Shown here piece after piece: positions 8,398-59,717 of a stretch of DNA of 61,189 nucleotides. Origin of the DNA: a virus; the IMG/VR virus record IMGVR_UViG_3300045454_000015, positions 1 through 61,189 of that record, one strand, 5' to 3'. A program made the translations under genes and the position numbers. The notes beneath the pieces were generated by a model that was not told where the DNA came from, made no database searches, and worked only from the letters and a program-made list of their open reading frames with translations. Numbering within the stretch: position 1 is the first letter of the stretch; each line of letters opens with the position of its first letter.

Positions 8398-8403
8398 CCG
8401 CAG

Positions 8404-28030: not shown

Positions 28031-31000
28031 TGCAAAGCCTCCCGGATGCCAGGGCGCAAGTGACGCGGCGCGCTTTCTTCCATGCGCTGGGCTCTCGGCT
28101 TGCGCATCTCCCGCACGCGCTTGAGGATGCCCGGCATGTTCACGCGGATGGGCATTTCGGGGTTCTTGGCGTTCCAGTCGGCCAAGCGGTCACGCGCATC
28201 CTGTACCCGCTGCGCATCCCCCTCGAACAGGCCTTTGGCCCAGTCCTCGCGGATGCGCTTGCTAACAGCGTCGTATTGGGCTTGCGCCTCGTACTGGGCT
28301 TGGGCTGCACGTGATTCACGGGCCACGCCAGCGGGTTGCAGTCCCAAGCCCTTGAGCACGGCATCCACCGCGTCAACGTCAGCCACCTTGTAGTCACGCG
28401 AGTTGCGGTACATGCCCGTCTGGTACATATCCAGGGCCTTGGCGGCATTGCGCAGTGCGATCGGCCTCACTTCGCCCTTGAGAGCATCCCGCACGAAGCT
28501 GCCGGCCACCCCGAAGGTTTCCAGCACCTCGTCTTCCTTGCGGCTTTCGCTGGCCTTGAGCACACCCGTGCCGGGCAGGAGGTTGCCGAGGCCGAGGCGG
28601 GCGGACACGTCGAGTGGCACACCCGGGAGTGTACTGAAACCGTGCTGCAAAAAGTCAGCCGCGCCCTGCCCCAGCGTGCGCGCCACCATCGCGTTCATGG
28701 CCTGCTTGGTGCTGAACTGGTAGCCCATGCCCTGGGCGATGCTGTCGAGCACGTCCTGCAGGTCTTCCGCGAACGGCAGGCCCTGGGAGCCGGCCGCGAC
28801 GACCAGGATGGCCAGGGCCAGGGCGCGCTCCTTGGGCGGCAGCCGCTTCAGGAACTCCACGTACTGGATGCTGAAGGTCTTGAAGGTGAACAGCGTCGCG
28901 CCCACCGCGCCGCGGCTCCAATCGGGTCGGTTTCCGCGGTTAAAGACAGACTGCGTCTCGTCGACCGCGTCCTCGGCGAACTTGAAGGGGTCGGCCATGC
29001 CCTGCTCGCGCGCCGTGTTGTAGGCGGCGATGAAGGCCACCCGGCGGTTGAACACCTCGGCCATCTGGAACATGGAGCCCCAGGCCGACAGCAGCGAGCG
29101 CACATACAGGTTCGAGCCCAGCGACCGGCTGGCCTCGGCCTGAAGCTGGAACACCTCCTGCGGCTTGATGACGCCGTCCTTCTCGGCGCGCGACAGGGCC
29201 GCGGCCAGTTCGGCGTCGTCCACCTTCTTGGCCAGCGCCATCTTCATGGCTGCCGTCACCCGGGAGCCGGCCTTGGCCGGGCCACCGAACTGGCTCAGAT
29301 AGGGGAAGGTCTGCGCGAAGGTCTGCGTCAGGTTGACCATCGCCGACGCGATGGAGCCACCGATGTACTGCACGAACAGCAGCGACCGGATGCCCTGCGC
29401 TTCCTCCTTCGGGTCGTTGACGTAGTCGGCCAGCGCGCGGGCCTCGTCCTGCACGTCGCCCTGGCGGATGTTCTCGACCGCGTCGCTGATCCGCTGCGAG
29501 TGCAGTGCGCGCGACGCGGCGCGGGCGTTGCTGGTGATGAAGGCGGCCAGCACGCGCGAGCCGTCGTCGTCGAAGCCCTCGATGCCCTTGCGGCGGATGT
29601 GACGCTTCAGGGCCGACTGCTCGGCCACGGCGTTCTGCAGCCACTTCTGCATCGCCTCGTTCTTCTCGACGCCGAGCATCTCGGCGAACAGCATGGCCGT
29701 CTCCGGCGACACGCCCTTCAGGGCCTCGAACTGCTTCTGAGGCATGACGCTCTGCGACACCTGCAGCCCGCTCTCGCGGAACTTGCGCGCCGCCTTGTTG
29801 GCCTCGGCCTGGCTCTCGTACAGGCCGAAGTAGACGCGCTGGCCTTCGCCGTCGATCACGTCCACGGCGTAGGGGCCGAAGCGCATCAGCGGGGCGTAGC
29901 CGGCCGCCTTGAGGTCGGCGATGCGGTTGACCTTCTCGGCGATGGTGGCCTGCAGCTTGCGCAGGTCTTGCCGGCGCTGCATCAGGTCCGGCGTGTGCTG
30001 GTTCGGCTGGCCGTCGAGGGCCTTCTGCACCGCCTCCAGCCGGCGCTCGACGGCCTCCTTGACGGCCCGCACCGCGTCGCCCGGGGTGTCCGACGAGGCG
30101 GCGCGGCGCAGCGCGTCCAGCATCGTCTCGTAGTCGGTCGGGTTGGCCGACACCATTTCCGGTGCCATGACGCTGACCTGCCGGTACAGGTCGGCCGCGA
30201 GCATGTTGTCCAGGCTCTGGTCGATGGCTGCCCGGCTCTGGCGGTACATCTTGATCGCGCGCTCGCTCATGCCGCGCTGACGGAGCTCGTCGTCTGTCCA
30301 GACGATCCCGCCAGGCTCGGCGCTGTCCGGGTCCACCGGCACGGCGCGGCCGTCCTCGTCGCGGGTGTAGCGCAGCGTGCCGTCGAACAGCGCATCGGAC
30401 GCGGCCTTGATGTCGGCCTTGCGCTGCTTGTAGGCCGCCGGGCTGGCCAGCGTCGGGGCGAGCTTGGCCAGGTCGGAAAGAGTTTCCACCTGGGGCAGCA
30501 TGTCCGGGGCCATCTCCGCGGCCACCGTCGCCATGCGGCTCACGTCCTTCATGAAGTCCTGCACCGCGTAGTAGGCGCGGCCGAACTCCTTGTTGATCTT
30601 GGCCTTGTGGAACTGCGTGCCGATGGTGCGGTGCCACACGCGGTTGAAGCCGCGCTGGGAGGTCGTGCGGTCGGTCAGCCAGTCCTGCACCCCCTGGGGG
30701 ATGGTGTCGCGCAGCACGGCGCGGCTGAAGCGCGTCGGGCCTACTCCTCCGCCTTCACCTTCTTGCGCGCGGCCTGCAGCCTGGCCTTGTGCGCGGGCGT
30801 CATATCCTTCACGCGCGCCTCGACTTCCTTGCGCACCTTGGCGCGGTGCTCGGCGGTCTGCCGCTGCGAAGGTTTGCCAGTTGAGGATGCCATCGTAGGC
30901 CCCTTCCACGTTCTGTTGCGGGATGCCCATGCGCTCCCAGAAGCCTCGGGCCTCGGGGACGATGTTGCTGATGTTGAGGTCGGCGGTCGGGTTGGCGGCC

Positions 31001-34000
31001 AGCAGGGTTTCGATCACGGCACGGCCGACGCCCTGGCCGCGGCCATTGTCGGCGTAGACCTCGATGTCCAGCAGCGACACCGGGCGGCCATTCTCCACCA
31101 GCAGTTCCACATGGCCCAGCACGTCGAAGCCTTCGGCGGGCATGATGGCGTAGCTGACGACCTCCTGGCCTGGCTCGGGGATGACCTCGAAGCGCTCGGT
31201 CGGCTGCGGGGCGGCCAGAACCACGGTGCTGCCGGTGTACTCGGGGAAGCCTTCGGGGGTGCGGGTGGTGGCCACCGTCGGGCGGTCTGGCGTGCGGCGG
31301 CTGAACAGCGGCAGGCCGTTCGCGGCGCGCTGGCGCATGGCGGGGGTGATGGTGAAGCCGGGTTGCTGCATCGGCTTGTAGTCGGGGTTCGCGCGATCCT
31401 GCACCCTGCCGCCGACGCTGGGGCCAACGTCCACCATCTCCACCGCCCCGCCGCCGGTCTTGCGCAGCACGTCCTTCAGCGCGGCCGGCACGATCTTGTC
31501 GTAGAAGGCGCGCATGCCTTCGCCGCCGACCTTGAGGCCGTTGCCACGCATGTCGCCGTAGGGCTGGCCCATGATCCGCTCGGCAACGTCTTTGCCGACG
31601 ATTTCGTCCAGGCGCTTGCCGTCGAACTCGTTGCCGATCGAGCCTCCACCCATTGAGCCGACTGCGCCGTCCGGCTGCAGCATGAACTCGATGTCGTTGC
31701 CATTGTTCGGCGTGATCGTGACGCGCTTCTCGGTGTCGTTGCCGCGGCCAGTCCACGCGATGCTGCGAACCTGCTTGCTCAGGTCATACCGCTCCGCGCT
31801 CTGCTCCCCGTTCACGAACGCCACCTTGTCGTAGCCCTCGTCCACGGCCATCTTGACGATGCGCTTCAGGGCCAGGGCCACCCACTTGTCGGTCTTGTCG
31901 ATGAAGGGGGCGGCAGGCACGCCGGCACGGTTCGGCGCCGTTTCCGTGGCGCTGCGGCTCTGCTCGATCACGCTCCACAGGGCGCCGTCGCGCTTGACCA
32001 CCAGCCGGTTTTCCATGCCGGGCTCGCGGTTGCGCTCCAAGAACGGCTGAAGCTCGCGCATCTTGGCCTGCGCCTGCGCCTCCGTCTCCAGCGTGTCCAG
32101 CGTGTCGGCGTCGAACCACTCGCGCGACTGGGGGATCATGTCAGTGCTCAGGCCCTTGCGGCGGGCGTCCTGGGCGTAGTCGCTCTGGATCTCCTCGACG
32201 AACAGCACGCGCTTGCCGTCCGCGTCGGTGCGGTCGTTGAGGCGGATGTGGGCCAGGACGTTCTTCTGGCTCCAGTGACTGGACGTGTAGTTTGTCTTGT
32301 CAGCACCAAGCGGCCCGCTGGTTCGCATGAAGTCGCGCGCCAAGTCCTGAGCGCGGTCTAGCGTGTAACCAGTCCTTAGCTCTCTGCCGTCAGGGAACAC
32401 GACATTGAAAAGACCGTCTCTCCTTTTAACGATTTTCGGCTGCGGCGCCTCCTTCTGTGGCAGCGTCAGCAGCACCTCCCGGTAGTTGGTGCCGCCGGGG
32501 AGGGTGTATTGGGCGTACTTGGTTGTGTCTGCCGGGACATCGGCGTTTTGCTGCCACTCGGCAATCGCGTCTTCTGGCGAATTGCCCGTGCCCTGAATCT
32601 CTCCGTTCTGGTCAAAGAGCGCGTACACATACTCAGTGTCTGCGCGCACTACCCATCCTCGGGGCAGGCTGGCTTTTGGGCTGCCGCCCAGCACCGTCTC
32701 TGTCACCCGCACGCCGTTGGCGCGCAGGTAGTCCGCCACGGCCTCACGCGACACCTTGCCGGCCTGCATGCCAAGCCAGTCCTCAACGCCGCTCCAAGTC
32801 ACCTCGTCCTGCTTGACGGCGCCCTTGGCCACCAAACCGCGCAGCAGCGTGCGCCAGCCGTCGGCGTTGGCCATCTTCTGGTTCGCGCCCACGATGGCGC
32901 GGTACAGCGGAGAGAAGAAGATCACAGGGTCGGAGTCTCGCCCGAAAACCGTCCCTGCCGTCCTGAACGTAGCCGCCCCGTTGACGCTGACGCTCTCGGC
33001 GGCCAGCACGAAGGCAGCGATGTCGTTGTCGGTCCAGCGGGCCGGGTCAATGGCCGCGGCCACCGTGGGCAGGTTCGCGCGGCGCAGGCTCACGGCAGTC
33101 TGGCGCAGCCACCGGCGGATCGCCGCGATCATGCGCTTGAAGCCGGTGAGCTTGGCCACCTGCTCCACCGGCATGTCGGCCAGTGCTTCCTCCACGGCCT
33201 CGACCCGCGACGAGGCCAGCCCGTCGTCGAGCTTGGCCTGGGCCGCCTGGCGCAGCGCCGGGTTGTCCTTCCACATGGCGTGCATGACCGCGCCCATCTC
33301 GTCCCCGGCACCGAGCATGGACCGGATGCCGTGGTGGCGGACCTCGTGGTAGCCCACCACGAAGCGCATGCGCTCGACGCTGGCGATGTTGCGCGGGAAG
33401 ACGTGGATCTCGCCCTCGTGGTAGGCCGCCTCGACATCGAACTCGGCGCCCTGGCTGCGGATGATGTCGCGCAGGGCCTTGGGCGCCTGCTGCAGCGTCT
33501 CGTGGATGTGGATCGGCGGGGCCTTGGGCAGCGCTTCGCGGATGGCTGCCGTGACGGCGCGGGCGTCGTCCATAGGCACACCGCCGCGGCGGGGGCCGGT
33601 GGAGCGGCTGAATGCTGCGTCGCCATCTCCAGCCGGGTAGTGCTTGTCCAGCACCGTCTTCGCGGCTCGGCGGGCGTTGTCGGTCAGTTGCCGCTGCCAT
33701 GCCTCGTTCTTCGGGCTCCACTTGAACCCGTTGGCCTTGAGGTCTTCGCGCACGGCGTCGCTCGGCTTGCCGTCGAAGATCAGGCGCAGCCTGTCGTCCT
33801 GCGCGTCCTCCACGATCCGCACGCCGTCACGCTCGGACTCCTGCGGGCCTGCCTGCGCCGCGGCCATGCGCGCCTCGGCGTCGGCCAGTCGCTCGCGCAG
33901 CCGGCGAATCTCGGCGTTGTTGTTGGTCAGGCGGTAGTCCGGGAACCCCTTGCGGCCGGCGAAGTCGCCCTTCTTCAGTTCGGCGATCTGCTCGGCCGTG

Positions 34001-37000
34001 AATCCCAACTCTTCCAGCGCCGCATCGTCACCCTTGCGGATGGCGACGTTCGCGGCCTTCATCGTCTCCTGCAGTTCCTCGCGCTCGGCAAGGCGCAGGC
34101 GCACGCTCTCCAGCTCGGACTCCGGGCTGTTGTCGATGGGGCCACGCGCGGCGCGGATCAGGCGCTTGATGCCGCGGGCAAGGTACTGCTGCGCCTCGTC
34201 GGCGCGCTTGCGCTCCGTTTCCATGCGCTTGCGGTTGCGCTCCACCGGGAAGCGGGCCGGGCCTGCAATCATGGATGACATGACGCGGCTGCGGGCCTCC
34301 AGCGTGCGCATGTAGCGTGCGCGGTAGCCCTGCGCCACGTCGGTGAACACCTCGCGGATGCGCTCTACGGCTTTCTCGTCTTGGCCGGCAATCCGTGCGG
34401 CACGGCTCCAGGCATCCTCCAGCGCAGCCATGAACGACTGCTGCTCCTGGCCAGCGCGGACTTCCGGCACATGCGACGTGCCCCGGTGCGCGTTCTGCGC
34501 CACCTCGCGCGGGATGCCAGCGACGGCGGGCATTGGCGCGGGTTCTGCCGGCGCCTCCCCCTCTGCTTCCGCCTCGGCTTGGGGCTGGGCGGCGGGGGCG
34601 GCCTTGCCCCACGCCATGAACGCATCTACTGCGGCCTGCGCATCCTTGGTTCGGTTGTAGACCGAGGTGGCGGCGTCCAGCGCCTCGTCCAGCGCATCCT
34701 CGCTCTTGAAGTCTCGGCGCAGAATCGGCAGGCGGTCGTACTTGACTTCAGCCGGCACGTTGCGGCCTTCATCCAGGGCCTTTCGCAGAGCCTTATCCCT
34801 CTCGATTGACCACAGAGCGAAGTTGCCACTGCCGAACTTCGCCGCGGCGATGGCATCTCGCAACTGGTCGTCCGTGGTGGCCCATGCCGGCTGCGTCAGC
34901 TTCAGGTCAAGCAGACTTCCGCCGTACTCGATCGTCAGCGTGGTGTCGTCTTCCTCCGGCTGCACAGCGGGCGCGGCATCCACCTCCGGTTGCGCGGCAG
35001 GGGCCTCGGCTTCGGGCTCGAACTCACCCACCGCTTCAGCGGTCGGCGTCAGGCCCGCGACCTTTCCAAGGCGCTCCTTGTCGCCCTTCAGCACCTCGGT
35101 GATGTCCAGGGCGCGCGCCGCGGCATAGTCCACTGCGGCTTGAGGGTCGCCTTCGTCAATCATGTTCTCGACTGCGGCCTTGGCCCCTCCGCTACCCCCC
35201 TCAACGCCGAACGTGCTGCCGGCCTCCTTGCGCATGCCGTAGCCGTTGACGCGAGGCGCCACGAACACGGGGAGCTTGTCGCTGAAGCCCGGGGACTTCT
35301 CCACCTTGCGGCGGAAGTCCGCCAGGGCCTCTCGGGTGTTGAGGATGGTGAAAGTCCCGTCGCCCGGCACCTTGATCTTCACGGTGTCTGGTGGTCTGAC
35401 CTTGCCCTCGACGTCCATGCGCCGCAGCAACGTGGCCAGTTGAGTGCGAGCCGCTTCCGGACCGCCGTTGAGCGTGCCGACCAGCTTGTTGCGCGTCTTT
35501 CCGGTGCCGCTGCCGTCGTAGGAGGTGTCGCGCACCTCCCAGTTCCCGTCGCTCGACTGCCGAGCATCGACAGAAAGCGTGCGGTCGCCGAACCTTCGGA
35601 ATCCGCTGATCTCCTTCTTGCCCCTGCGGGTGACGGCTTGACCGACGGCGATATCTGCGTTCAAGACTTCCTCGGTCGGAGCCTTCTCCATCGCTGCGTC
35701 GATCAACCGCAGCGCCTCGCGCTTCATCGTGGAGCGCGGCACGTCCTTGTTCTCGGCCGCCTTAGTGATGGCCTCGTTCACCACCGCCCGGTTCACGGGC
35801 TCGGCGGGCTCGCCAGGGTCTTTGTGGGTTGCCTGCGCCTCCAGCGTCACCGCGCCCGTCGGTCGTAGTGCTGGTTCCTGCTGCGCGCCGCGGCGAGCAA
35901 TGGCCACGATCTCTCGCGCAGTCGCTTCAATAAGCATCGAATCGGAAGGAGCCTTGAACTTTCCGTTGCGCTTGACGCTCTTGATCTTGGCGTTGGCGCG
36001 ACGCTCGAACTCCTTTTCTCCGACAGTAGCGATGGCCTCGCGCATGACTTCAACAGTCGGAACATCATTGATGGCGTTGATCTCCTCCATCGTCGGGCCG
36101 TCGTAAACCTCTGGCGCTGGCCCGTCCTGCTCAGCATCCGACCGCGCCCCCTCATCCCACCCGGCCAGCCATTCGGCCTTCTGGGCCTCGTTGAGTGTGT
36201 CCGGCGGCGTGGCCGGCTCGCCGCGGGCCTGCGCCTTCTTGCCGCGCAGGCGCGGGTCGCGCTGATCGCGCCCGCGCTCGATGGCCGGCGTGCCCACCCG
36301 GGACTCGACCAGGTTGCCCAGCGACATCTCGTCGTTGGCGTTGAGCCCATAGGACTCGGCCACCTTGGCACGCTCTTCGACGTAGGCGTCGTAGCCCTGC
36401 TCGCGCAGCACTTCGGCCAGGCGGTCGGCTTCCACGTCCGCCGGTGCCCGTCCTTGACCGGCTCCAACGGCACGGGTCTTCGCGCGCGCAATGAAGCCAC
36501 CCGTAACCGGCACCACCTCATGGCTGTCCGACAGGCCGCGCTTGTTCACCTCGCGCTGGGCGGCCATCTTCGTGGCGAAGGGCTCCCCGCCTTTGCGGGT
36601 GACCTCTACCCCATCGGCTTGTACGGCGGGGGCTCCGGCATCGGCAGGTCCTGGGGCTCGGGCTGCATCGCCCTCCACTGCCGCTCGCGCTTGACCTGCC
36701 GGGGCTTGGGTTTCGGGCTGGCGGGCTCGGGTCGGTGCGTCCTGGACATCACGGGTCTGGGGCTCCTGTGCTCGTCGGCGCAGGGCCGACAGTTCTCGGG
36801 CGGCGGCCATCATGCCCTGGCTGTCGCCGGCCTCCTTGGCGGCGTCGTAGCGGGCCGTGAGGGTCTCCTCGGTCAGTGCCGCGTCATCTCCTGCGGGTCC
36901 AGCTCCACCAGCCGCAGCCGGCGCAGCATCGGCCGGAACTCGTCCGGGTACGGCTCCTCGGGGTTCAGCAGCCGGTCGTCCATCAGCACCCACGCCTCGG

Positions 37001-38958
37001 CCTGCGTCAGCACCCCTAGCAGCACGGCCTCCTCCAGGTCCTCGTCCAGCTCCCATCGCCACGTCATTGGCCTGCTCCTTGCGCACGACAAAGCCGCCCT
37101 CCACGGGCACCACGGCGCCGCCATCCTTCTTGGCCGCGCGGTCGGCCGCCATGCGGGTCTTGAAAGGCTCGCCGCTGGGGTTCAGGGTGTCGCCCGGGCG
37201 CACCATGCGCGCCTGGGCGGCCTCCACGTCGGGCGTCAGGCCCAGCTCGTCGCGGCGCTGGCGCTCGGCGGCCGCCTCGTTCTGACCCTGGCGCGCGCTG
37301 ATCTCGTCCGCCCGGGTTTCCGGGGCCGCGCGGCCTGCACCGTCCACCCGGATCGTGCCGGTGGGGGCGGTGTCCAGCCCGATCTGGGGCACCCCGGGCG
37401 CGGCGCCGATCTGCTCGGGGCGCTGGTTGGCCCCGACGTTCGGGCGGCTCGGGATGGGCCGCAGCAAGGCTTCTCCGACCCCGCGCTCGGCCAGCTCCAG
37501 CAGGCGCGAGCGGGTGAGGTCTGGCAGGTCCACATCGGGGCGGTCGGCCAGCGAGGTGTAGTAGGTGATCTCGTTCAGCGCGTCATCGCCGAAGCGCTCA
37601 CGCACCTGCTCGCGCACGCGCTCGTCGGCCAGTTGCTCGCGCAGTGCGAGCACCCGGTCACTGAAAGCCGCGTCGGGCACGAACTGCGCCGTACCCTCCT
37701 TGCCCGGCTGGGGCGGGGTCTGACGGCCCGTCGGCACACCCCGGCGCACCACCTCGGGCGTGGAGCGGCCGGTGAAGTCGCGCAGGCCCTGCAGGTCGGA
37801 CTGGGCCTGCGCCTCCATGCGCGACAGTGCAGCGGCCTCCTGCTCTTCGGTGAGGCCAGCCGCCGAAAGGCCCGGCTCCTGGCCAGCAGGCGCGTCAACC
37901 ACGGGCGGCACCACCGGCGCCGCAGGGTCCTGTCCGCCGGCTTTGACGGCACGGGTCAGCGGCCCGTCGTTGGGCGCGGGCTCCACCGGCGCGCTGGAGA
38001 ACGCCGACACCCCTCCACCGAGAAGCCCGCCGGCCGCGCCCTCAAGCGCTGCCTGCCCGGCCACGCCCTGCCACGTCGGCACTTCGAACCCTTCGCGCTG
38101 CAGGGCCACGTTCGAGGCGTAGCGCTCCTGCCCACCCTGAACCGCCTCCGGGATGCCTTCGGCCACCGCACCGGCGGCCACGCGGCCCGCCAGCCCACCC
38201 GTGGCGCCCCCGCGCCCGATGATGCGCTCGATACCCGTCGAGCCGGCAGCCGCGCCTAGGCCGGCACCGGCGGCGATGTTGCCCTGGTTCGGGCCGTCAT
38301 AGGCCTGCGCTTCAGCGGCGCGGGCGGCGGCTTCCTCCGGCGGCACACCCGCCTCCAGCAGCCGGCGCTCCACCGCTTCGTAGATCTCGCCCTTGACCAC
38401 GCCAGCGCCCTGCACGGCACCCATGCCGGCGGTGGCCACGGTGCGCGCGAGATTGGCCTGCCCCAGGCCGGGGATGGCGGCCATGGCGACGGTCGGCGCC
38501 ATCGTGCCGGCGGCCTCCAGCAGCGTGTCCAGCGGGGCTTCGTAGAGCGCCCCGAGGTTGGCCTTGATGCTCTCCCAGGTGGAGCCCGATTCGTCGGCCT
38601 CCTTGATGCGCTGCGCGCGGCGCTGGCGCTCGGCCTTGCGGTAGTCGCTCTCCAGCGTGCTCAGGCTGTCCCGGGCGCCGCCCAGGGCTTCGGACACGGC
38701 GTTGTCGGCGCCGAAGGCATCGGACACCATCTTCACGCCCGACACCAGCCCGCGGCCCAGGGCCACGCCGGAGTCGCCCAGGCTGCGCAGCAGGCCGGGA
38801 TCTTCGGGCATCGGCGCCTCGAATTTCACCCCCAGACGCTCGGCCAGCACGGCCTTGTCCACCTTGGGGTAGTAGATGCGCTGAACGACGTCGATCAGGT
38901 GGGCGTCATCGAGCTGCGCCAGGTGGGGCAGCTTCTGCCGGAGTTGCTTGATGTCCAT
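28027..38958 (-). CDS. Giant polyvalent virion/ejection protein, 3,643 aa
   Basis: Single ORF. HEVRH zincin-like motif at 33334..33348, GNAT RGQGVGRAV at 31015..31041, PLMRFG (PLxRFG domain) at 29875..29892, and a hydrophobic C-terminal third. Confidence 0.8.
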   Translation of the reverse strand: MDIKQLRQKLPHLAQLDDAHLIDVVQRIYYPKVDKAVLAERLGVKFEAPMPEDPGLLRSLGDSGVALGRGLVSGVKMVSDAFGADNAVSEALGGARDSLSTLESDYRKAERQRRAQRIKEADESGSTWESIKANLGALYEAPLDTLLEAAGTMAPTVAMAAIPGLGQANLARTVATAGMGAVQGAGVVKGEIYEAVERRLLEAGVPPEEAAARAAEAQAYDGPNQGNIAAGAGLGAAAGSTGIERIIGRGGATGGLAGRVAAGAVAEGIPEAVQGGQERYASNVALQREGFEVPTWQGVAGQAALEGAAGGLLGGGVSAFSSAPVEPAPNDGPLTRAVKAGGQDPAAPVVPPVVDAPAGQEPGLSAAGLTEEQEAAALSRMEAQAQSDLQGLRDFTGRSTPEVVRRGVPTGRQTPPQPGKEGTAQFVPDAAFSDRVLALREQLADERVREQVRERFGDDALNEITYYTSLADRPDVDLPDLTRSRLLELAERGVGEALLRPIPSRPNVGANQRPEQIGAAPGVPQIGLDTAPTGTIRVDGAGRAAPETRADEISARQGQNEAAAERQRRDELGLTPDVEAAQARMVRPGDTLNPSGEPFKTRMAADRAAKKDGGAVVPVEGGFVVRKEQANDVAMGAGRGPGGGRAARGADAGRGVGADGRPAAEPRGAVPGRVPADAAPAAAGGAGPAGDDAALTEETLTARYDAAKEAGDSQGMMAAARELSALRRRAQEPQTRDVQDAPTRARQPETQAPAGQARAAVEGDAARAPGPADAGAPAVQADGVEVTRKGGEPFATKMAAQREVNKRGLSDSHEVVPVTGGFIARAKTRAVGAGQGRAPADVEADRLAEVLREQGYDAYVEERAKVAESYGLNANDEMSLGNLVESRVGTPAIERGRDQRDPRLRGKKAQARGEPATPPDTLNEAQKAEWLAGWDEGARSDAEQDGPAPEVYDGPTMEEINAINDVPTVEVMREAIATVGEKEFERRANAKIKSVKRNGKFKAPSDSMLIEATAREIVAIARRGAQQEPALRPTGAVTLEAQATHKDPGEPAEPVNRAVVNEAITKAAENKDVPRSTMKREALRLIDAAMEKAPTEEVLNADIAVGQAVTRRGKKEISGFRRFGDRTLSVDARQSSDGNWEVRDTSYDGSGTGKTRNKLVGTLNGGPEAARTQLATLLRRMDVEGKVRPPDTVKIKVPGDGTFTILNTREALADFRRKVEKSPGFSDKLPVFVAPRVNGYGMRKEAGSTFGVEGGSGGAKAAVENMIDEGDPQAAVDYAAARALDITEVLKGDKERLGKVAGLTPTAEAVGEFEPEAEAPAAQPEVDAAPAVQPEEDDTTLTIEYGGSLLDLKLTQPAWATTDDQLRDAIAAAKFGSGNFALWSIERDKALRKALDEGRNVPAEVKYDRLPILRRDFKSEDALDEALDAATSVYNRTKDAQAAVDAFMAWGKAAPAAQPQAEAEAEGEAPAEPAPMPAVAGIPREVAQNAHRGTSHVPEVRAGQEQQSFMAALEDAWSRAARIAGQDEKAVERIREVFTDVAQGYRARYMRTLEARSRVMSSMIAGPARFPVERNRKRMETERKRADEAQQYLARGIKRLIRAARGPIDNSPESELESVRLRLAEREELQETMKAANVAIRKGDDAALEELGFTAEQIAELKKGDFAGRKGFPDYRLTNNNAEIRRLRERLADAEARMAAAQAGPQESERDGVRIVEDAQDDRLRLIFDGKPSDAVREDLKANGFKWSPKNEAWQRQLTDNARRAAKTVLDKHYPAGDGDAAFSRSTGPRRGGVPMDDARAVTAAIREALPKAPPIHIHETLQQAPKALRDIIRSQGAEFDVEAAYHEGEIHVFPRNIASVERMRFVVGYHEVRHHGIRSMLGAGDEMGAVMHAMWKDNPALRQAAQAKLDDGLASSRVEAVEEALADMPVEQVAKLTGFKRMIAAIRRWLRQTAVSLRRANLPTVAAAIDPARWTDNDIAAFVLAAESVSVNGAATFRTAGTVFGRDSDPVIFFSPLYRAIVGANQKMANADGWRTLLRGLVAKGAVKQDEVTWSGVEDWLGMQAGKVSREAVADYLRANGVRVTETVLGGSPKASLPRGWVVRADTEYVYALFDQNGEIQGTGNSPEDAIAEWQQNADVPADTTKYAQYTLPGGTNYREVLLTLPQKEAPQPKIVKRRDGLFNVVFPDGRELRTGYTLDRAQDLARDFMRTSGPLGADKTNYTSSHWSQKNVLAHIRLNDRTDADGKRVLFVEEIQSDYAQDARRKGLSTDMIPQSREWFDADTLDTLETEAQAQAKMRELQPFLERNREPGMENRLVVKRDGALWSVIEQSRSATETAPNRAGVPAAPFIDKTDKWVALALKRIVKMAVDEGYDKVAFVNGEQSAERYDLSKQVRSIAWTGRGNDTEKRVTITPNNGNDIEFMLQPDGAVGSMGGGSIGNEFDGKRLDEIVGKDVAERIMGQPYGDMRGNGLKVGGEGMRAFYDKIVPAALKDVLRKTGGGAVEMVDVGPSVGGRVQDRANPDYKPMQQPGFTITPAMRQRAANGLPLFSRRTPDRPTVATTRTPEGFPEYTGSTVVLAAPQPTERFEVIPEPGQEVVSYAIMPAEGFDVLGHVELLVENGRPVSLLDIEVYADNGRGQGVGRAVIETLLAANPTADLNISNIVPEARGFWERMGIPQQNVEGAYDGILNWQTFAAADRRAPRQGAQGSRGAREGYDARAQGQAAGRAQEGEGGGVGPTRFSRAVLRDTIPQGVQDWLTDRTTSQRGFNRVWHRTIGTQFHKAKINKEFGRAYYAVQDFMKDVSRMATVAAEMAPDMLPQVETLSDLAKLAPTLASPAAYKQRKADIKAASDALFDGTLRYTRDEDGRAVPVDPDSAEPGGIVWTDDELRQRGMSERAIKMYRQSRAAIDQSLDNMLAADLYRQVSVMAPEMVSANPTDYETMLDALRRAASSDTPGDAVRAVKEAVERRLEAVQKALDGQPNQHTPDLMQRRQDLRKLQATIAEKVNRIADLKAAGYAPLMRFGPYAVDVIDGEGQRVYFGLYESQAEANKAARKFRESGLQVSQSVMPQKQFEALKGVSPETAMLFAEMLGVEKNEAMQKWLQNAVAEQSALKRHIRRKGIEGFDDDGSRVLAAFITSNARAASRALHSQRISDAVENIRQGDVQDEARALADYVNDPKEEAQGIRSLLFVQYIGGSIASAMVNLTQTFAQTFPYLSQFGGPAKAGSRVTAAMKMALAKKVDDAELAAALSRAEKDGVIKPQEVFQLQAEASRSLGSNLYVRSLLSAWGSMFQMAEVFNRRVAFIAAYNTAREQGMADPFKFAEDAVDETQSVFNRGNRPDWSRGAVGATLFTFKTFSIQYVEFLKRLPPKERALALAILVVAAGSQGLPFAEDLQDVLDSIAQGMGYQFSTKQAMNAMVARTLGQGAADFLQHGFSTLPGVPLDVSARLGLGNLLPGTGVLKASESRKEDEVLETFGVAGSFVRDALKGEVRPIALRNAAKALDMYQTGMYRNSRDYKVADVDAVDAVLKGLGLQPAGVARESRAAQAQYEAQAQYDAVSKRIREDWAKGLFEGDAQRVQDARDRLADWNAKNPEMPIRVNMPGILKRVREMRKPRAQRMEESAPRHLRPGIREALQ
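36873..37067 (-). CDS. Embedded +1-frame acidic protein, 64 aa
   Basis: AAGGAG lies 7 nt before the ATG. 62 of 64 codons end in G/C, versus about 23 of 65 in the overlapping giant-gene frame. MTWRWELDEDLEEAVLLGVLTQAEAWVLMDD... Confidence 0.6.
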   Translation of the reverse strand: MTWRWELDEDLEEAVLLGVLTQAEAWVLMDDRLLNPEEPYPDEFRPMLRRLRLVELDPQEMTRH

Positions 38959-55949: not shown

Positions 55950-57388
55950 AGGATCTTGGGGTTGCGCTCGCGCCGCTCACGGCGCGGCTGAGGTTCGGTG
56001 GTGGCCCTGGCCAGGCCTGAGACGATCAGGTAGCGCGTTGCGTCCATGAGGTGGTCGTTCTCCTTGACGATGGCGCCCTTCTCGTCGCGTCGGTACAGCC
56101 GGTACTCGCCGAGCCAGTTCTGCAGGCTGCGGAAGACCTTGAGGCGGCCGGTGGACAGGCGCTGCCACACGTCGTAGATGCCGGCCTCGCGTGCGTTGTT
56201 GGCCGGCTGTAGGTCCAGGCCGTGCTCCCGGTAGGTTTCGATGAGCTTCTCGCCGTCTTTCTGGCTTCGCCCCCGCGCGGCCGGGTCGATCACGCCGGGT
56301 ATCCACTTGCCCTTCGCCTTGATCGCGTCGGCGTGGATGCTTGGCTCTGCTTGACCGCGGTAGTGCTCGGCAGTCAGATACACCACGTCGTTCTCTCGGT
56401 CCCACGCTGCCCAGGCTGCGGCTGTGCGATTCCATCCCACGTCCATGCCATAGGATCGCGGCCAGTGCTCCGGGATGTCGAAGGGCGCCACCACGATGTC
56501 TTCCTCCGGCACCGGGTAGATCGCTCCCGCCCCCAGGCTGGGAATGCCCTTTGTTCGGGCGTCGCGCTGGTGGGGCATCAGCTTGGCCAGCATCTTGATC
56601 TTCACGTCCTCGTCCAGGTGAGGCACGTCGTCCCATCCGCACTGCACGATGGCCCGGCTGGCCGCGGCGTCTGTGCTGGTCTTCTGGAGGCTCACCACAA
56701 GCGGCGTCAAGCCGTTCAGGGGCGTGAAAGTGAGCATCGAGATGCCTCGGCGCGTCATCAAGCGCACCAGGCCCTCCTCGTACACGTCCTCGGGGCACTC
56801 TTCGTCGGCCCAGAACACGTCCAGCTCGAAGCCCTGGAAGATCTCGCGGCCCTGCTCGTAGCTGCGCAGCCACAGCTCCGACTCGCCGCCGGTCACGTGG
56901 CGCACGGTCACGCGCTCGATGGCGCCCTTGACGTGTGGCCGCGGGATGTAGCTGATGATGTCTTGACCAGGGATCAGCCCCGTGCCGATGTTCTCCGGGC
57001 GGTCGGTCGTCCCGCCCAGCAGCTTGAGCTGCAGGATGTCGCGCGTGGTTTCGTGGGTGTCGCCGGACGCTAGCGCCCGGATCGGCCGGTTGAACCTGCG
57101 CCCCTCCCACCACGCAGGGTACTTGCCCGTAAGGTGGTACGCGATCTCGCAGCCTGCGGCCACGGTCTTGCCGGTCCTGTTGCCCGCGATGAACGCCCGC
57201 TCGTCCTTCTCGGCGCCGAGCCGGAAGAACTCGACGTGCTTGGGGTACAGATCGCGTCGCAGCGGCCCATCGTCCGGGAACATGCCGTCGAGCAGGCGCA
57301 TGCGGCTACGCCGCTCGACCTCTCCCAGCAGCACCGCCAGTTCGGCCTTGTCCTCAGGGCTCAGAGTCGAAAGGTCAATCGCCCCCAT
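55946..57388 (-). CDS. terL: Terminase large subunit, 480 aa
   Basis: Walker A is IAGNRTGKT. The nuclease half contains ...DVGWNRTAAAWAAWD...HLMDATRY.... Start MGAIDLS overlaps the terS end. Confidence 0.85.
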   Translation of the reverse strand: MGAIDLSTLSPEDKAELAVLLGEVERRSRMRLLDGMFPDDGPLRRDLYPKHVEFFRLGAEKDERAFIAGNRTGKTVAAGCEIAYHLTGKYPAWWEGRRFNRPIRALASGDTHETTRDILQLKLLGGTTDRPENIGTGLIPGQDIISYIPRPHVKGAIERVTVRHVTGGESELWLRSYEQGREIFQGFELDVFWADEECPEDVYEEGLVRLMTRRGISMLTFTPLNGLTPLVVSLQKTSTDAAASRAIVQCGWDDVPHLDEDVKIKMLAKLMPHQRDARTKGIPSLGAGAIYPVPEEDIVVAPFDIPEHWPRSYGMDVGWNRTAAAWAAWDRENDVVYLTAEHYRGQAEPSIHADAIKAKGKWIPGVIDPAARGRSQKDGEKLIETYREHGLDLQPANNAREAGIYDVWQRLSTGRLKVFRSLQNWLGEYRLYRRDEKGAIVKENDHLMDATRYLIVSGLARATTEPQPRRERRERNPKIL

Positions 57389-58106
57389 CTGCGGCGCCCT
57401 CCGTCTTCGGCGGCGTGATGGCCGTGATCCCAAACCGTGCCAGCCGCTTGGCCAGCTCGTCGTCGCTCATGGACCGAGCATCGATGGTCGCGTCGACCTG
57501 CACCTTGTCGCCGTAGACCCGCGGCTTGAGCTTCGCCGCCACCCATTTGCGTGCATCAACGCGCAACTTCGCGCGCTGCACCGCTGCATGGTTCGTCACC
57601 GGCCGGCCGTCTTCGTCTTCTGCCAGGTCGCTGCCGTCGTCGTCGCTGATGGACACGATCTCGTCGGCCAGCTTGTCGGAGCGGTCCTCGCGCGCACGCG
57701 CGTATTTGGCGTCTCTCTCAGGGTCGGCGGCGATCCAATCGCGGATCGTGCTGTAGCTCAGGCCCTGCTCTTGTGAGTAGGCCCACAAGTTTCCGCCGGA
57801 CACGATGTAGTCGCACAGGGCCGTGATGGCACGAGCGGGGTCGGCGCTCCACTTCTGCCACGGGGTTTGCGGGGTCTCTGCGGCTGCTGCCGGTGCCGGC
57901 TTTGCCTTCTTGGAGCGGGCGCCCGGAGTTGAACCGGGCGACTCCGACGTAGAAGGACGGCGCCCTGCCAGTTGAGCTACGCCCCCCGCGGGTTGCTTGG
58001 GTTTGGCCGCGACCTTCTTGGCCGCCGGGCGCTTTGCCGGGGCCTTCTTCGGGTCAGGGGTGGTCGCCTTGGCCTTGGTGGGCTTCGGCGTACTCTTGCG
58101 CGCCAT
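57375..58106 (-). CDS. terS: Terminase small subunit, 243 aa
   Basis: Lys/Pro-rich N-terminus, LSYSTIRDWIA HTH-like segment, and KLRVDARKWVAAKLKPRVYGDK, a typical TerS C-terminal motif. Confidence 0.65.
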   Translation of the reverse strand: MARKSTPKPTKAKATTPDPKKAPAKRPAAKKVAAKPKQPAGGVAQLAGRRPSTSESPGSTPGARSKKAKPAPAAAAETPQTPWQKWSADPARAITALCDYIVSGGNLWAYSQEQGLSYSTIRDWIAADPERDAKYARAREDRSDKLADEIVSISDDDGSDLAEDEDGRPVTNHAAVQRAKLRVDARKWVAAKLKPRVYGDKVQVDATIDARSMSDDELAKRLARFGITAITPPKTEGAADGGD

Positions 58107-58223
58107 CCGTGTGTCCTCGTGGTGGTGGGCAGCCGCGAGGGAAAGAACGGCCCAGGGCACCAGGCCCCGGGCGTTCCACCAGTCCCCACTGGCTGCGATG
58201 GCAACTGCTTACCATCAAGGATG

Positions 58224-58253
58224 AGTAGAACCTGGGTTTTGCCGGAGTCAACG
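58224..58253 (-). promoter_or_regulatory. Late-promoter-like motif, copy 6 (CGTTGACTCCGG-...-TCTACT)
   Basis: Lies about 120-140 nt upstream of terS, back-to-back with the plus-strand cassette promoter. Confidence 0.5.
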
Positions 58254-58269
58254 AGGCCGCATTGCGGGC

Positions 58270-58297
58270 TTGACTTCACACCAATGTGGTGTATAGT
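58270..58297 (+). promoter_or_regulatory. Strong sigma70-type promoter with an operator palindrome
   Basis: TTGACT (58270..58275), a 16-nt spacer, then TATAGT (58292..58297). The palindrome CACCA-ATG-TGGTG (58279..58291) fills the spacer. Confidence 0.7.
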
Positions 58298-58364
58298 TCA
58301 GGCATGGTGATCGAGTTGATCGCCACCGACGCCAGGCGGGTCCTGGCTCTCTGAGGAGATCATC

Positions 58365-58637
58365 ATGAGCACCCGCACCACCTTTTTCACCCTCCGGGCA
58401 CCGGGCCCGGCAGTACTGGTCGCCGACGCCTGCGAGGCCCTGCCCGACACGGGCGAGCACGCGCGCCGGATGGCTCTGACCGAGCACTCGGTCATCAAGA
58501 CCGGCCACCGCGCCGGCCACTGGAGCCGCGAGGCGCTGGAGCGTCTGGCCACCCGTCACGGGATGGCGCTGGTATCCGCCTACTCGATCGCCCGCGACAG
58601 CAATGGATGGATCGAGGCGTCGCGCAGCAGTATCTAA
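58365..58637 (+). CDS. Cassette gene A, unknown, 90 aa
   Basis: Track ORF with SD gaggag. Oriented opposite to all flanking genes. Confidence 0.55.
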   Translation: MSTRTTFFTLRAPGPAVLVADACEALPDTGEHARRMALTEHSVIKTGHRAGHWSREALERLATRHGMALVSAYSIARDSNGWIEASRSSI

Positions 58638-58694
58638 CTCCCACCCCCGGCCCTGCACGCGGGGCCTGCGCACAGAACGCACGAAAGGACCATC

Positions 58695-59012
58695 ATGAGC
58701 ACCACCTACGTCATCCACTGCGAGCCCGGCTACTTCGAGGGCGACATCCACGGCCGTGACAAGCCCTACATCCTGCTCAGCGAGCGCGACGGGCGAGCCA
58801 TCGCCCTGGCCTCCAGCGACGAGGCCGAGCGCATCGCTGCGATGATGGAGCCCTCGGGCGGCGTGCAGCTCGACGACAACCAGCACTCCCTGCCGACCTA
58901 CAGCGTCCAGGCCGCCCCTGCCGGCACGGCGCCGATGACGATGCGCGAGGCCATGCGGGCGCTCGACCTGCACCACGACTACCGCGAAGACGGCTCCCGC
59001 ATCACGGCATGA
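58695..59012 (+). CDS. Cassette gene B, unknown, 105 aa
   Basis: Track ORF with SD aaaggac. Confidence 0.55.
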   Translation: MSTTYVIHCEPGYFEGDIHGRDKPYILLSERDGRAIALASSDEAERIAAMMEPSGGVQLDDNQHSLPTYSVQAAPAGTAPMTMREAMRALDLHHDYREDGSRITA

Positions 59013-59257
59013 CCAGCAAGCACTACAGGTGGCAGCAGCGCTGGCGGCGCGAGCCTTCGGGCCATCTGCTGCATGACAGCGGCCTGCGCGTGCTCGTGAC
59101 GCGAGGGCCGGACTACACCGACCTGCAGGCCTCGCCCGACACGCTGGAAGCCTGGCAGGCCTTCGAGGCTGCGCGCGGCGTGCCGATGCACGACATGCTG
59201 GCGAGGCTGCAGCGCCTGATCCGGGAGGCCGAGCAATGGCACAGACTGAATGCGTGA
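59009..59257 (+). CDS. Cassette gene C, unknown, 82 aa
   Basis: Track ORF with ATGA overlap with gene B. Confidence 0.55.
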   Translation: MTSKHYRWQQRWRREPSGHLLHDSGLRVLVTRGPDYTDLQASPDTLEAWQAFEAARGVPMHDMLARLQRLIREAEQWHRLNA

Positions 59258-59472
59258 TCTATTCCATCGCGCCACCGCTGCCCGAGGACATCGTGACTGC
59301 CCGGCTCATGGCTGGGCACACCCAGTCCCAGGCTGCTGCATGCGTCCACCGCCCAGGCTACCGCTCGTGGCAGAACTGGGAGCGCGGCACCGCCCAGATG
59401 CCCGCCGACACGTGGGAGCTGTACCTGCTCAAGACAGGGCAGCACCCCGTGCACACGCTCCGAAAACGATAG
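59236..59472 (+). CDS. Cassette gene D, XRE-type HTH regulator, 78 aa
   Basis: EDIVTARLMAGHTQSQAAACVHRPGYRSWQNWERGTAQMP is an XRE HTH pattern. Last gene of the cassette. Confidence 0.65.
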   Translation: MAQTECVIYSIAPPLPEDIVTARLMAGHTQSQAAACVHRPGYRSWQNWERGTAQMPADTWELYLLKTGQHPVHTLRKR

Positions 59473-59495
59473 CCGCCCGCGACCCGGAGTCAACG
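59466..59495 (-). promoter_or_regulatory. Late-promoter-like motif, copy 7 (CGTTGACTCCGG-...-TATCGT)
   Basis: The TGA inside TTGACT is the stop codon of the 75-aa gene. The -10 overlaps the stop of cassette gene D. It fires antisense into the cassette. Confidence 0.5.
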
Positions 59496-59717
59496 GGACG
59501 CCAGGATCTCCACGGCCCTTTGCCGGGCCTCGATGGTCTTGGTGTCGGCCTGCTGCCAGCGCTTGCAGGAGTGGCCGAAGGCGTGGAAGGTGGCCCGGTA
59601 GGCGCTGCCTGTGCAGTTGATGAGCCCGAGCCTGGCCATCTCGACCAGGATCTCGTTGCGCTTGGCGTCCCGGCGGTCACGCATGGCGGCGTGGGTGCAG
59701 GTCAGGCAGGTGGTCAT
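59490..59717 (-). CDS. Small Cys/His protein in the Q (late regulator) position, 75 aa
   Basis: MTTCLTCTHAAM...INCTG...HSCKRW. Last gene of the early-right operon, directly followed by a late-promoter motif. Confidence 0.5.
   Translation of the reverse strand: MTTCLTCTHAAMRDRRDAKRNEILVEMARLGLINCTGSAYRATFHAFGHSCKRWQQADTKTIEARQRAVEILASR

Follow-up and report, generated by a model that had tools for sequence, protein, structure and literature searches.

A reverse-oriented cassette between terS and the early-right genes

The window (the whole 61,189-nucleotide stretch of viral DNA analyzed here) contains a plus-strand cassette of four ORFs in the order A-B-C-D (Table 1). B and C overlap by 4 nt and C and D by 22 nt, and A and B are separated by 57 nt. 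The GC3 values of all four genes are of the coding type (genome GC 67%), no minus-strand ORF within the cassette interval passes the same coding filter, and Logan contigs of this phage yielded these four genes again with an independent gene caller. The genes on both flanks are on the minus strand: terS, which encodes an Sf6_terminase domain, and terL lie to the left, and early-right genes lie to the right. The first-pass annotation, which placed four plus-strand ORFs against the orientation of their neighbors between the early-right genes and terS, is borne out on these points. The phage is temperate, carrying an integrase gene (19828-20859) and a Cro-like gene (8060-8356), and its host lineage is probably Burkholderiales. 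A DNA search of the cassette region against cultured phages gave no match, and scans of IMG/VR for close relatives with B and D as queries returned nothing.

Table 1. Positions of the genes and regulatory features of the cassette
Feature	Position	Strand	Description
12-mer copy upstream of terS	58242-58253	-	back-to-back with the cassette promoter; 16-nt spacer, then TCTACT
Cassette promoter TTGACT-16-TATAGT	58270-58297	+	found by promoter scan; sigma-70 match 10/12
Putative D operator ACACCA-ATG-TGGTGT	58278-58292	.	inverted repeat in the spacer, reaching the first -10 base
5' leader	58297-58367	+	P1 hairpin 58305-58325, linker CCGAC 58326-58330, P2 hairpin 58331-58347, P3 58348-58359
Gene A	58365-58637	+	90 aa, pI 9.3 (basic), GC3 0.88; putative payload
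Gene B	58695-59012	+	105 aa, pI 4.9, charge -8 (acidic), GC3 0.94; putative payload
Gene C	59009-59257	+	82 aa, pI 9.7 (basic), GC3 0.89; directly upstream of regulator D
Gene D	59236-59472	+	78 aa, GC3 0.81; Aca10-family HTH regulator, putative autorepressor
Second 12-mer copy with -10, TTGACT-16-TATCGT	59466-59495	-	12-mer at 59484-59495; antisense into the cassette

Related modules were identified in other phages, on one plasmid, and in chromosomal islands. In these relatives the promoter and the leader are retained, as is a terminal regulator of the Aca10-like, RHH or KorA-like type, but the small genes are shuffled: the same promoter and leader are found with different small orphan genes, and locus L004 has A and B in the opposite order to the window. 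Genes B and C themselves, at 69-90% identity, occur in phages of different architecture, a conjugative plasmid, and chromosomal islands. The regulator gene after C varies among the relatives: it is Aca10-like, RHH or KorA-like, or is missing altogether. A small RHH-like protein occupies the terminal place of the Aca10-like gene in L010-L014, and in L015, on a Caldimonas chromosome, C has no downstream regulator. Several relatives are neighbors of an integrase gene and att site, or lie at the end of a prophage beside SRAP genes. Upstream of 73 Aca10-like genes found in genomes, gene content is hypervariable, and many of the upstream genes are small and acidic. Family searches (NCBIfam, Pfam) with ten payload proteins from related modules found nothing.

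Gene D is homologous to aca10

By sequence comparison, D is a clear homolog of Aca10. A phmmer search of the PDB with D returns the Aca10 structure 7XI5 (PMC9410881) with an E value of 9.9e-12 over 59 residues (10-68), followed by Aca2 at E 0.02, and tblastn gives 50% identity to the Pseudomonas citronellolis aca10 gene. The PDB search also gives weak matches to HigA-2 and MqsA (E about 1), and a plasmid homolog of D matches the MqsA family with E 0.005. Aca10 has been shown experimentally to repress the acrIC7-acrIC6-aca10 operon (PMC9410881). D had originally been described as an XRE-type HTH protein. The HTH assignment stands because D is homologous to the solved Aca10 structure; a Pfam search of D does not call an HTH domain. 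In an alignment with 7XI5, the Aca10 residues Q22, R34, Q37 and E52 are conserved in D. However, R44, a critical DNA-binding residue of Aca10, aligns with an alanine, and G49, a dimer-interface residue, with an aspartate (roles from PMC9410881). Because these two residues are not kept, the mode of DNA contact of D may differ from that of Aca10.

Promoter and putative operator

The promoter scan of the region found two sites compared with 0.2 expected, and recovered the near-consensus cassette promoter that had been proposed from inspection of the sequence. Across both strands of the whole 61-kb window there are two promoter sites that match at 10/12 positions, this one among them. The TATAGT -10 hexamer recurs in the promoters of the related modules L004 and L123, and the L025, L109 and L110 promoters have TTGACA-type -35 hexamers with TATATT or TATTAT as the -10.

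The palindrome CACCA-ATG-TGGTG reported within the promoter spacer is present, and is one base pair longer on each side than claimed. In this genome, any given 20-nt stretch would contain a perfect inverted repeat with arms of 6 bp with a probability of about 0.02. The inverted repeat bound by Aca10 has the form 10-1-10 and overlaps the -35 and -10 of a TTGCAA-N16-TATTCT promoter (PMC9410881). The window repeat occupies the same place in its 16-nt spacer as the Aca10 operator, and with its 6-bp perfect arms it has 7/10 matching positions in a 10-1-10 frame. Related Aca10-bearing modules have an inverted repeat of different sequence at the equivalent place in the promoter, and the regulator and the repeat co-vary among them. 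L110 encodes an Aca10-like protein with a GDRKM motif, and its half-sites ATACGCTCA / TGAGCGTAT are identical to the published IR2 (PMC9410881). L123 encodes a D-like protein and has in common with the window the arrangement ACAC-N7-GTGT, while L004, where the D protein is 61% identical, has a different perfect repeat, ACGTCAC-C-GTGACGT. By analogy with Aca10, D would bind the repeat in the cassette promoter.

A structured 5' leader

Between the promoter and gene A lies a structured leader whose P3 element pairs TCTC with GAGA across the Shine-Dalgarno sequence, ahead of the ATG at 58365. With a covariance model (R1), the window leader reaches 86.6 bits and that of P. citronellolis acrIC7 (L068) 56.8 bits; 11 related modules are also matched. 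Covariation is strong, with compensatory changes at 8/11 pairs and 93.6% of cells paired compared with 72% in shuffles; shuffles that were equally good numbered 0/500. A search of Rfam identified tRNA only and gave no family for the leader. An Aca10-associated RNA motif in the 5' UTR has been predicted independently (Feussner et al. 2026, PMC13551039), and the layout of the window leader agrees with that motif as far as its description allows comparison. Our result thus independently corroborates the predicted RNA. No binding of purified Aca10 to this predicted RNA was seen by EMSA (PMC13551039).

The leader is found with C in 11/13 modules that have usable upstream DNA. A specific tie between leader and C was considered, and is weakened by the leaders without C in L068, L079, L063 and L039. 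The leader of L123 is diverged; it was read by eye and is not detected by model R1. Shortened P2-P3 copies of the leader precede internal genes where the gene order is shuffled. In L010 the leader occurs in a module with an RHH regulator, and in L015 in one that lacks a regulator, and its partner therefore may not be the Aca protein. Both the shortened copies and the occurrence of the leader beside an RHH regulator or none bear on the mechanism of the element. We also considered P1 as a second Aca operator and rejected this, as by eye the P1 arms bear no resemblance to the promoter repeats in any module.

A phage promoter motif brackets the cassette

The 12-mer CCGGAGTCAACG (CGTTGACTCCGG on the minus strand) occurs in six exact copies in the phage (at 27905, 42795, 48389, 52014, 58242 and 59484). 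All have the same orientation and precede structural or packaging gene blocks, with a 16-nt spacer and then an nAnnnT hexamer after every copy. As the first-pass annotation had recognized, two copies of this late motif bracket the cassette, one back-to-back with its promoter and one antisense to it, and both prove to be exact 12-mers. Together they form an 18-nt direct repeat (family D4, the copy on the terS side at 58241-58258) with 78% identity, of which 12 bases are exact. The copy at 59484-59495 is scored by the promoter scan as a minus-strand promoter. Its -10 (59466-59471) does overlap the D stop codon (59470-59472), as had been described, and the element as a whole also overlaps the stop of the upstream 75-aa gene.

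Related loci outside this phage do not contain the late 12-mer, and the bracketing of the cassette is thus specific to this genome. The flanking motifs could act as an early-on, late-off switch. Antisense transcription of an acr-type operon from a phage promoter could add a further, temporal layer of shut-off.

Payload genes A, B and C

Consistent with their initial description as small ORFs without recognizable domains, A, B and C gave nothing significant in searches of Pfam, PHROGs, NCBIfam and PADLOC. More specifically, A-C have no match in PDB sequences, NCBIfam or Pfam, no significant match was obtained for A-D in Pfam or PHROGs, and a PADLOC search of A-D and their neighbors gave nothing significant for A-D. 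Compared with AcrIC6 and AcrIC7 (extracted from L068), A-C show hhalign probabilities below 2% and no BLASTP match. As AcrIC6 has a broad phylogenetic distribution and its gene immediately precedes aca10, we asked if C could be the same protein; however, AcrIC6 is 144 aa long and the hhalign probability is 0.4%. A relationship of B or a neighboring gene to AcrIC7 through a shared N-terminal motif was not significant.

Gene A has 42 homologs, all from metagenomes or MAGs, and no match in family databases or PDB sequences. It is also found as the second gene of L004, in L123 (in the order 75 aa - A - 93 aa - Aca10-like), and among the packaging genes of L122. B has only two homologous clusters (77% and 69% identity), both within related modules. 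Of the three payload genes C is the most widely shared, and its family has 17 close homologs and about 106 clusters at 50% identity. The members come from phages, plasmids and islands in the Beta-, Gamma- and Alphaproteobacteria, with one in PLSDB and none in the cultured-phage collection searched. C is not specifically tied to Aca10: 0/73 genomic Aca10-like loci contain C, and C is also found with RHH or KorA-like regulators, or with none.

A Foldseek comparison, which the first-pass annotation had proposed for the payload, was carried out with AF2 models of B (pLDDT 80) and C (pLDDT 88.9; four strands and two helices). Both models are confident and neither has a fold match: B yields nothing in the PDB at E below 0.1, and C nothing at E < 0.1 in the PDB or BFVD (best PDB E 0.36), with no likeness to RelE, HigB, MqsR or any PDB fold. 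The N-terminal motif of C, KHYNWHKAWRRE in the alignment consensus and KHYRWQQRWRRE in the window protein, is conserved and rich in aromatic and basic residues. One member of the C family, encoded on a plasmid contig, combines the C domain with a Cas5f-like domain and an RHH-like tail in a single polypeptide.

Interpretation of the cassette

We consider the cassette to be an Aca10-type accessory operon of the acr-aca10 kind, with a probability of about 0.6. Operons of this type are already known, and the window cassette is a further example. An acr-aca-like locus had been suspected from the gene layout, and this reading gains from the homology of D to Aca10, the repeat in the promoter spacer, the leader in common with the type locus, and the shuffling of the payload. 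The replacement of the terminal regulator by an RHH protein in L010 also counts for acr-like behavior of these loci. RHH Aca proteins (Aca14) are documented, and Cas5f homologs occur in Aca-regulated anti-defense operons (PMC13551039).

In the mechanism that we propose, host sigma-70 RNA polymerase would fire the cassette promoter soon after DNA entry. The transcript would start near 58304, just before the 5'-terminal P1 hairpin, continuing into the conserved P2 and the weak P3 that pairs with the gene A Shine-Dalgarno sequence. Given this layout, we propose that the leader sets mRNA stability, translation, or both. A, B and C would be the payload, most likely inhibitors of host immunity, for which CRISPR-Cas is the precedent and other defenses are possible targets. 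D, with a start codon overlapping C, would be translated last, dimerize, bind the ACACCA-ATG-TGGTGT repeat, and shut the operon as Aca10, Aca1 and Aca2 do. Late in infection, the motif at 59484-59495 would send antisense polymerase through the cassette towards terS, on a minus-strand transcript predicted to start near 59459, reinforcing the shut-off. The timing of expression and the role of the antisense promoter are predicted from the arrangement of these elements.

A putative anti-defense activity of A-C is assigned by association with the operon type, as no payload gene matches a known Acr among AcrIC6, AcrIC7 and the PDB, NCBIfam and Pfam entries searched. Guilt by association has a known false-positive rate, and many Acrs are acidic, whereas A and C are basic. 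In favor of the assignment, the confident models of B and C have no known fold, as is usual for Acr proteins. A tentative and on balance doubtful extension is that C represents a new, fairly widespread anti-CRISPR or anti-defense family with a novel fold that travels with the Aca10-type promoter and leader. Its target could be a type I-F-like Cascade, as hinted by the single C-Cas5f-like-RHH fusion in a Rosetta-stone type of argument. Less likely than a new family is a role for C as the missing protein partner of the Aca10-associated leader RNA, which Aca10 failed to bind.

The operon could also be regulated by an Aca10 homolog and carry a payload that acts outside immunity, for example in taking over the host, in mobile-element competition, or in the metabolism of DNA or RNA. 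Aca-regulated operons hold many non-Acr genes that may serve other conflicts (PMC13551039), A and C are basic with an N-terminal motif in C that would suit nucleic-acid binding, and C accompanies the leader in most modules. However, the C-less leaders and the diverged leader of L123 loosen that association, all payloads validated so far in this module family are anti-CRISPRs, and there is no positive evidence for any particular alternative function. We regard a non-immunity payload as unlikely, though a real possibility. Less probable again is a moron that protects the lysogen through a toxin-antitoxin, superinfection-exclusion or defense system, in which C, A or B would be the effector and D a HigA- or MqsA-like antitoxin and autorepressor. 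The 22-nt overlap of C and D, a pair that is kept in several elements, would suit such a system, as would the weak matches of D to HigA-2 and MqsA, the MqsA-family match of its plasmid homolog, and the location of several relatives by integrase and att sites or prophage-end SRAP genes. In addition, toxin-antitoxin systems are known to swap their terminal DNA-binding gene, here among HTH, RHH and KorA-like proteins. The match of D to Aca10 is nevertheless ten orders of magnitude better than that to any antitoxin, the confident model of C is unlike the toxins with which it was compared, PADLOC matches none of the proteins, and C stands without a downstream regulator in Caldimonas. Free shuffling of the payload is likewise a misfit with an obligate two-partner system.

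The first-pass annotation had offered as its alternative a second immunity region like immI of P22, with A, B or C as an antirepressor of the CI-like repressor and D silencing it in the lysogen. The phage is indeed temperate, and its candidate CI (8344-8856, 170 aa) has no recognizable peptidase domain, in agreement with the earlier claim that CI lacks a cleavage domain. The antisense promoter facing the cassette is loosely like that of the immI sar RNA. However, searches of Pfam and PHROGs with A-D found no Ant, KilAC, Bro, Arc or Mnt domain, D is the last gene whereas arc is the first, and a LexA-box-like sequence was not seen when the promoter was read by eye. The presence of the same B and C in differing phages, a conjugative plasmid and islands fits poorly with a single cognate repressor. 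This alternative is therefore not supported, with the regulator last and the module moving between unrelated replicons, and we judge it very improbable.

Comparison with known systems

Returning to the Aca10-type operon that we favor, the closest known system is the acrIC7-acrIC6-aca10 operon of P. citronellolis (Leon et al. 2021, PMC7913775; Lee et al. 2022, PMC9410881; PDB 7XI5). The two loci share a terminal homologous HTH regulator of ~65-78 aa (50% identity), a sigma-70-type promoter with an inverted repeat in its 16-nt spacer, a homologous structured leader that one covariance model matches in both, and small orphan genes upstream of the regulator. However, the window payload is unrelated to AcrIC6 (144 aa) and AcrIC7 (94 aa), and the window operator differs in sequence, with perfect arms of 6 bp compared with 10 bp in Aca10 IR2. 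The window regulator also differs at Aca10 R44 and G49, the host probably belongs to the Burkholderiales and not to Pseudomonas, and copies of a phage promoter motif lie on both sides of the window cassette, one of them antisense to it.

Like the window cassette, the P22 immI region (ant, arc, mnt, sar) is small and regulated, lies near the late genes of a P22-like temperate phage, and shows convergent or antisense transcription. It differs in that the window cassette has no Ant, Arc or Mnt homology, places its regulator last, and belongs to a module that crosses unrelated replicons.

The leader is similar to the 5' UTR motifs of Aca2 and Aca1 operons and to the predicted Aca10 motif (PMC13551039). 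In each case a DNA motif lies over the promoter, covariation-supported hairpins begin right after the predicted transcription start, and the first start codon is at a conserved distance. The Aca2 and Aca1 regulators bind RNA, whereas the Aca10 EMSA was negative (PMC13551039), and the window-type leader differs from these motifs in also accompanying an RHH regulator (L010) or none (L015).

The Aca14 operons (PMC13551039) provide a further parallel. The window regulator D is an HTH rather than an RHH protein, but the RHH-like terminal proteins of L010-L014 can be likened to Aca14 by type and position. Similarly, the plasmid fusion of a C-family protein with a Cas5f-like domain and an RHH-like tail recalls the Aca14 operon that contains AcrIF6 and a Cas5f homolog. 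A, B and C are three candidate anti-CRISPR or anti-defense proteins, novel in fold and from under-sampled Burkholderiales phages, and the C-Cas5f fusion suggests the type I-F Cascade as a concrete first target.

The cassette and its promoter region

The phage genome (61.2 kb, 67% GC) is circularly permuted and temperate, with a P22-type portal, an Sf6-type small terminase, an integrase and a Cro-like gene. In TerL its closest cultured relatives (EBPR podovirus 1) reach only ~54% identity. We confirmed four plus-strand genes, A to D, running against the flow of transcription between terS and the final gene of the early-right operon on the minus strand. Their third-position GC (0.81–0.94) indicates coding, and the minus strand of this interval offers no ORF as convincing. 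A–D were also called by an independent gene caller in two Logan assemblies carrying the same phage.

Features of the phage genome
Feature	Positions	Strand	Description
Gene A	58365-58637	+	ORF, pI 9.3
Gene B	58695-59012	+	ORF, pI 4.9
Gene C	59009-59257	+	ORF, pI 9.7
Gene D	59236-59472	+	ORF
Cassette promoter	58270-58297		TTGACT-16-TATAGT
Spacer palindrome	58278-58292		ACACCA-ATG-TGGTGT
Other 10/12 sigma-70 site	9765-9793	+	TTGACA-17-TAAATT
12-mer copy beyond gene D	59484-59495	-	promoter-type motif
Last early-right gene	59490-59717	-	75 aa, Cys/His-rich
Hairpin	58149-58172	-	GC-rich, terminator-like
terS ORF	57375-58160	-	Sf6_terminase domain from residue 112
tRNA-Arg(TCT)	57911-57986	-	ARAGORN; Rfam tRNA, 45 bits
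Long structural ORF	28027-38958	-	3643 aa
Split DNA methyltransferase	3270-5677	-	two ORFs
Methyltransferase ORF	4502-5677		LAGLIDADG homing-endonuclease domain, N-terminal part of N6_N4_Mtase
Methyltransferase ORF	3270-3920		C-terminal part of N6_N4_Mtase

The near-consensus promoter described in the first-pass annotation matches the sigma-70 consensus at 10 of 12 positions; just one other site in the window reaches this score, at the head of a plus-strand operon starting at 9826. The palindrome in its spacer, given earlier as CACCA-ATG-TGGTG, proved longer (chance of a repeat like this per 20-nt stretch, ~0.02).

The cassette is bracketed, as had been claimed, by two copies of a late-type 12-mer (CCGGAGTCAACG), which form an 18-nt direct repeat. 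This motif is specific to the phage and has exactly six exact copies, in one orientation throughout, ahead of structural or packaging gene blocks. On the minus strand it reads CGTTGACTCCGG-N12-nAnnnT: a -35 element between conserved bases is followed, after 16 nt of spacer, by a weak -10. The copy beyond gene D scores as an antisense promoter with its -10 overlapping the stop codon of D. The flanking repeat suggests an origin for the cassette: it may have entered between terS and a late promoter, duplicating the promoter motif.

Several neighboring features were observed. The stop codon of the last early-right gene abuts the 12-mer copy beyond D; its product has no family match and could be a late-gene activator adjoining its own promoter. 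The hairpin between the other flanking copy (at 58242) and the terS start is weakly and partially matched by the SorX sRNA model; it might serve in attenuation or antitermination of late transcripts. The tRNA gene lies in frame and on the same strand within an N-terminal Lys/Ala/Pro-rich extension of the terS ORF. Because no ATG, GTG or TTG occurs between the tRNA end and the Sf6_terminase domain, the terS coding sequence appears to read through the tRNA gene, and maturation of the tRNA would cleave the terS message. Elsewhere, the structural region of this podovirus-like genome contains a single very long ORF, and the apparent splitting of a methyltransferase suggests an intron- or intein-like insertion.

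Regulator D and its putative operators

Pfam does not recognise D; the HTH and Aca-like character given to it at first pass is supported by homology to the solved Aca10 structure. The best PDB sequence match (phmmer) is 7XI5 (E 9.9e-12, 59 residues), followed by Aca2 structures (E ~0.02) and HigA-2 and MqsA (E ~1). Structure 7XI5 shows Aca10 from Pseudomonas citronellolis. This HTH protein forms dimers and binds a 21-bp inverted repeat (10-1-10) in the promoter of acrIC7-acrIC6-aca10 (TTGCAA-N16-TATTCT), where the repeat overlaps both the -35 and the -10 (PMC9410881). Aca10 was named on the discovery of AcrIC7 and AcrIC6 next to its gene (PMC7913775). In the alignment D keeps Q22, R34, Q37 and E52 of Aca10, while the critical R44 is replaced by Ala and G49 by Asp, which marks D, by its sequence, as a diverged member of the Aca10 family.

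In all Aca10-bearing modules the promoter spacer contains an inverted repeat, which varies along with the regulator. In locus L110 the half-sites of the repeat, ATACGCTCA-A-TGAGCGTAT, are those of the published Aca10 IR2, and the protein keeps the GDRKM motif. The D-like protein of L123 has a recognition region in common with D, and the two repeats share ACAC-N7-GTGT. The L004 regulator D' (61% identity to D) has a different perfect repeat, ACGTCAC-C-GTGACGT, ahead of the same TATAGT.

A conserved leader RNA

The region between the -10 and the first ATG is a conserved leader common to the related modules compared. The RNA consists of a P1 hairpin that is variable in sequence but always paired, a CCGAC linker, a P2 hairpin (GCCAGG-CGGNU-CCUGGC) and a short P3 pairing between CUCU and the GGAG of the Shine-Dalgarno sequence. 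A covariance model trained on eight sequences scores the window leader at 86.6 bits and the P. citronellolis acrIC7 leader at 56.8 bits, and also finds the leader in eleven C-bearing modules and three other Aca10 loci. In the alignment of 18 sequences, which was fitted to the model, 93.6% of cells are paired compared with 72% in shuffles and 30–50% in slid controls, and 8 of 11 pairs show compensatory changes, with none of 500 shuffles as good.

Rfam has no family for this leader. An Aca10-associated RNA motif of exactly this layout, with significant covariation, was described in September 2026, and purified Aca10 did not bind that RNA in EMSA (PMC13551039). Matched by its description, the window leader is very probably this motif. 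The leader also occurs with RHH modules (L010, L025) and with no regulator (L015). Shortened P2–P3 copies with a ribosome-binding site precede the second gene in two modules (L004 1635-1685, L010 6341-6409), exactly where A/B gene order departs from the window, and the junction GAGGAGATCATCATG is the same at gene A of the window and the internal A of L004. Together these suggest gene-order shuffling by recombination at P2–P3 units.

Relatives of the module

Gene orders in related modules
Locus	Setting	Gene order
L004-L009	phage; reversed, as in the window, between early and packaging genes	B-A-116 aa-C-D'
L010-L014	siphovirus, after integrase and attP	B-75 aa-C-RHH-like
L026	after integrase	87-78-C-Aca10-like
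L109	facing portal and TerL	111 aa-C-Aca10-like
L110	after integrase; terminator and tRNA downstream	78 aa-C-Aca10-like
L022		85-76-C-KorA-like
L015	Caldimonas chromosome	88 aa-C, no regulator
pVEIS01	conjugative plasmid, Verminephrobacter	C, then gene 58% identical to Aca10
L123	between terS and early genes	75 aa-A-93 aa, then uncalled D-like ORF

Homologous clusters number 42 for A, 17 for C and only two for B, all from metagenomes, MAGs or one plasmid. The module is mobile and its content changes between contigs. The L004-L009 phage has the window's early-right genes (up to 96% identity) with another terminase and portal. A D/Aca10 profile scan of one genome per species found 73 loci, among them L068, the type locus of P. 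citronellolis; A, B and C occur at none of them, and the genes directly upstream of the regulator are almost all singletons, many small and acidic. Such a pairing of a constant regulator with small, hypervariable genes ahead of it is what typifies acr-aca loci.

Proteins A, B and C

As the first-pass annotation held, A, B and C lack recognisable domains, with no significant match in Pfam, PHROGs, NCBIfam, PADLOC or PDB sequences. The structural search that it proposed gave no PDB match for the AlphaFold models of B and C (pLDDT 80.1 and 88.9) and no BFVD match for C. Kinship with AcrIC6 or AcrIC7 was rejected, the three proteins being unrelated to both sequences as extracted from L068. The N-terminus of that AcrIC6 (L068 3555-4001), IHLRVQAATKGRWVRASRAAGMRLTDYIASAVEAYM, looks RHH-like by eye, a motif that would be unexpected in a protein reported only as a weak anti-CRISPR.

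A sensitive profile search gathers 106 clusters into the C family, mostly stand-alone proteins of 75–100 aa. In one member, P0158 (534 aa; L125 1349-2953), a C domain is fused to a Cas5f/Csy2-like domain and an RHH-like tail. Its gene belongs to a series of small orphan genes read in one direction, on a plasmid-like contig that also encodes RepA_C and KfrA_N proteins. The Cas5f/Csy2-like domain scores 30.1 bits in Pfam (gathering score 25) and matches Cas5f 8W1P across most of the chain (E 0.0012). Cas5f homologues are documented in Aca14-regulated anti-defence operons (PMC13551039). This single fusion ties C, weakly but suggestively, to the biology of type I-F CRISPR systems.

Proposed function and alternatives

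The homology of D to Aca10, the spacer repeat and the leader common with the type locus favor the acr-aca-type operon proposed at first pass, and an Aca10-type accessory operon is the best-supported reading of the cassette. Its payload would most likely be anti-defence; a non-immune accessory function for A–C is less likely. The first-pass alternative, an antirepressor region like P22 immI, is disfavored: Pfam and PHROGs give no Ant, Arc or Mnt homology, the regulator is misplaced for such a region, and unrelated replicons carry the module. A toxin-antitoxin system or exclusion moron is disfavored as well: the C model matches no toxin fold, C also occurs with no regulator, and D resembles Aca10 far more than it does antitoxins.

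In the acr-aca10-type operon, the consensus promoter would give early, strong expression, with the structured leader tuning stability or translation, and binding of D to the spacer repeat would then repress the operon. Silencing late in infection and a contribution to terS transcription are plausible further roles of the antisense late-type promoter.

Compared with the published RNA motif (PMC13551039), the leader's occurrence with RHH regulators or none and the shortened P2–P3 copies before internal genes are new. Operons of the acr-aca10 type are already known; to these the cassette adds three fold-novel candidate effectors.
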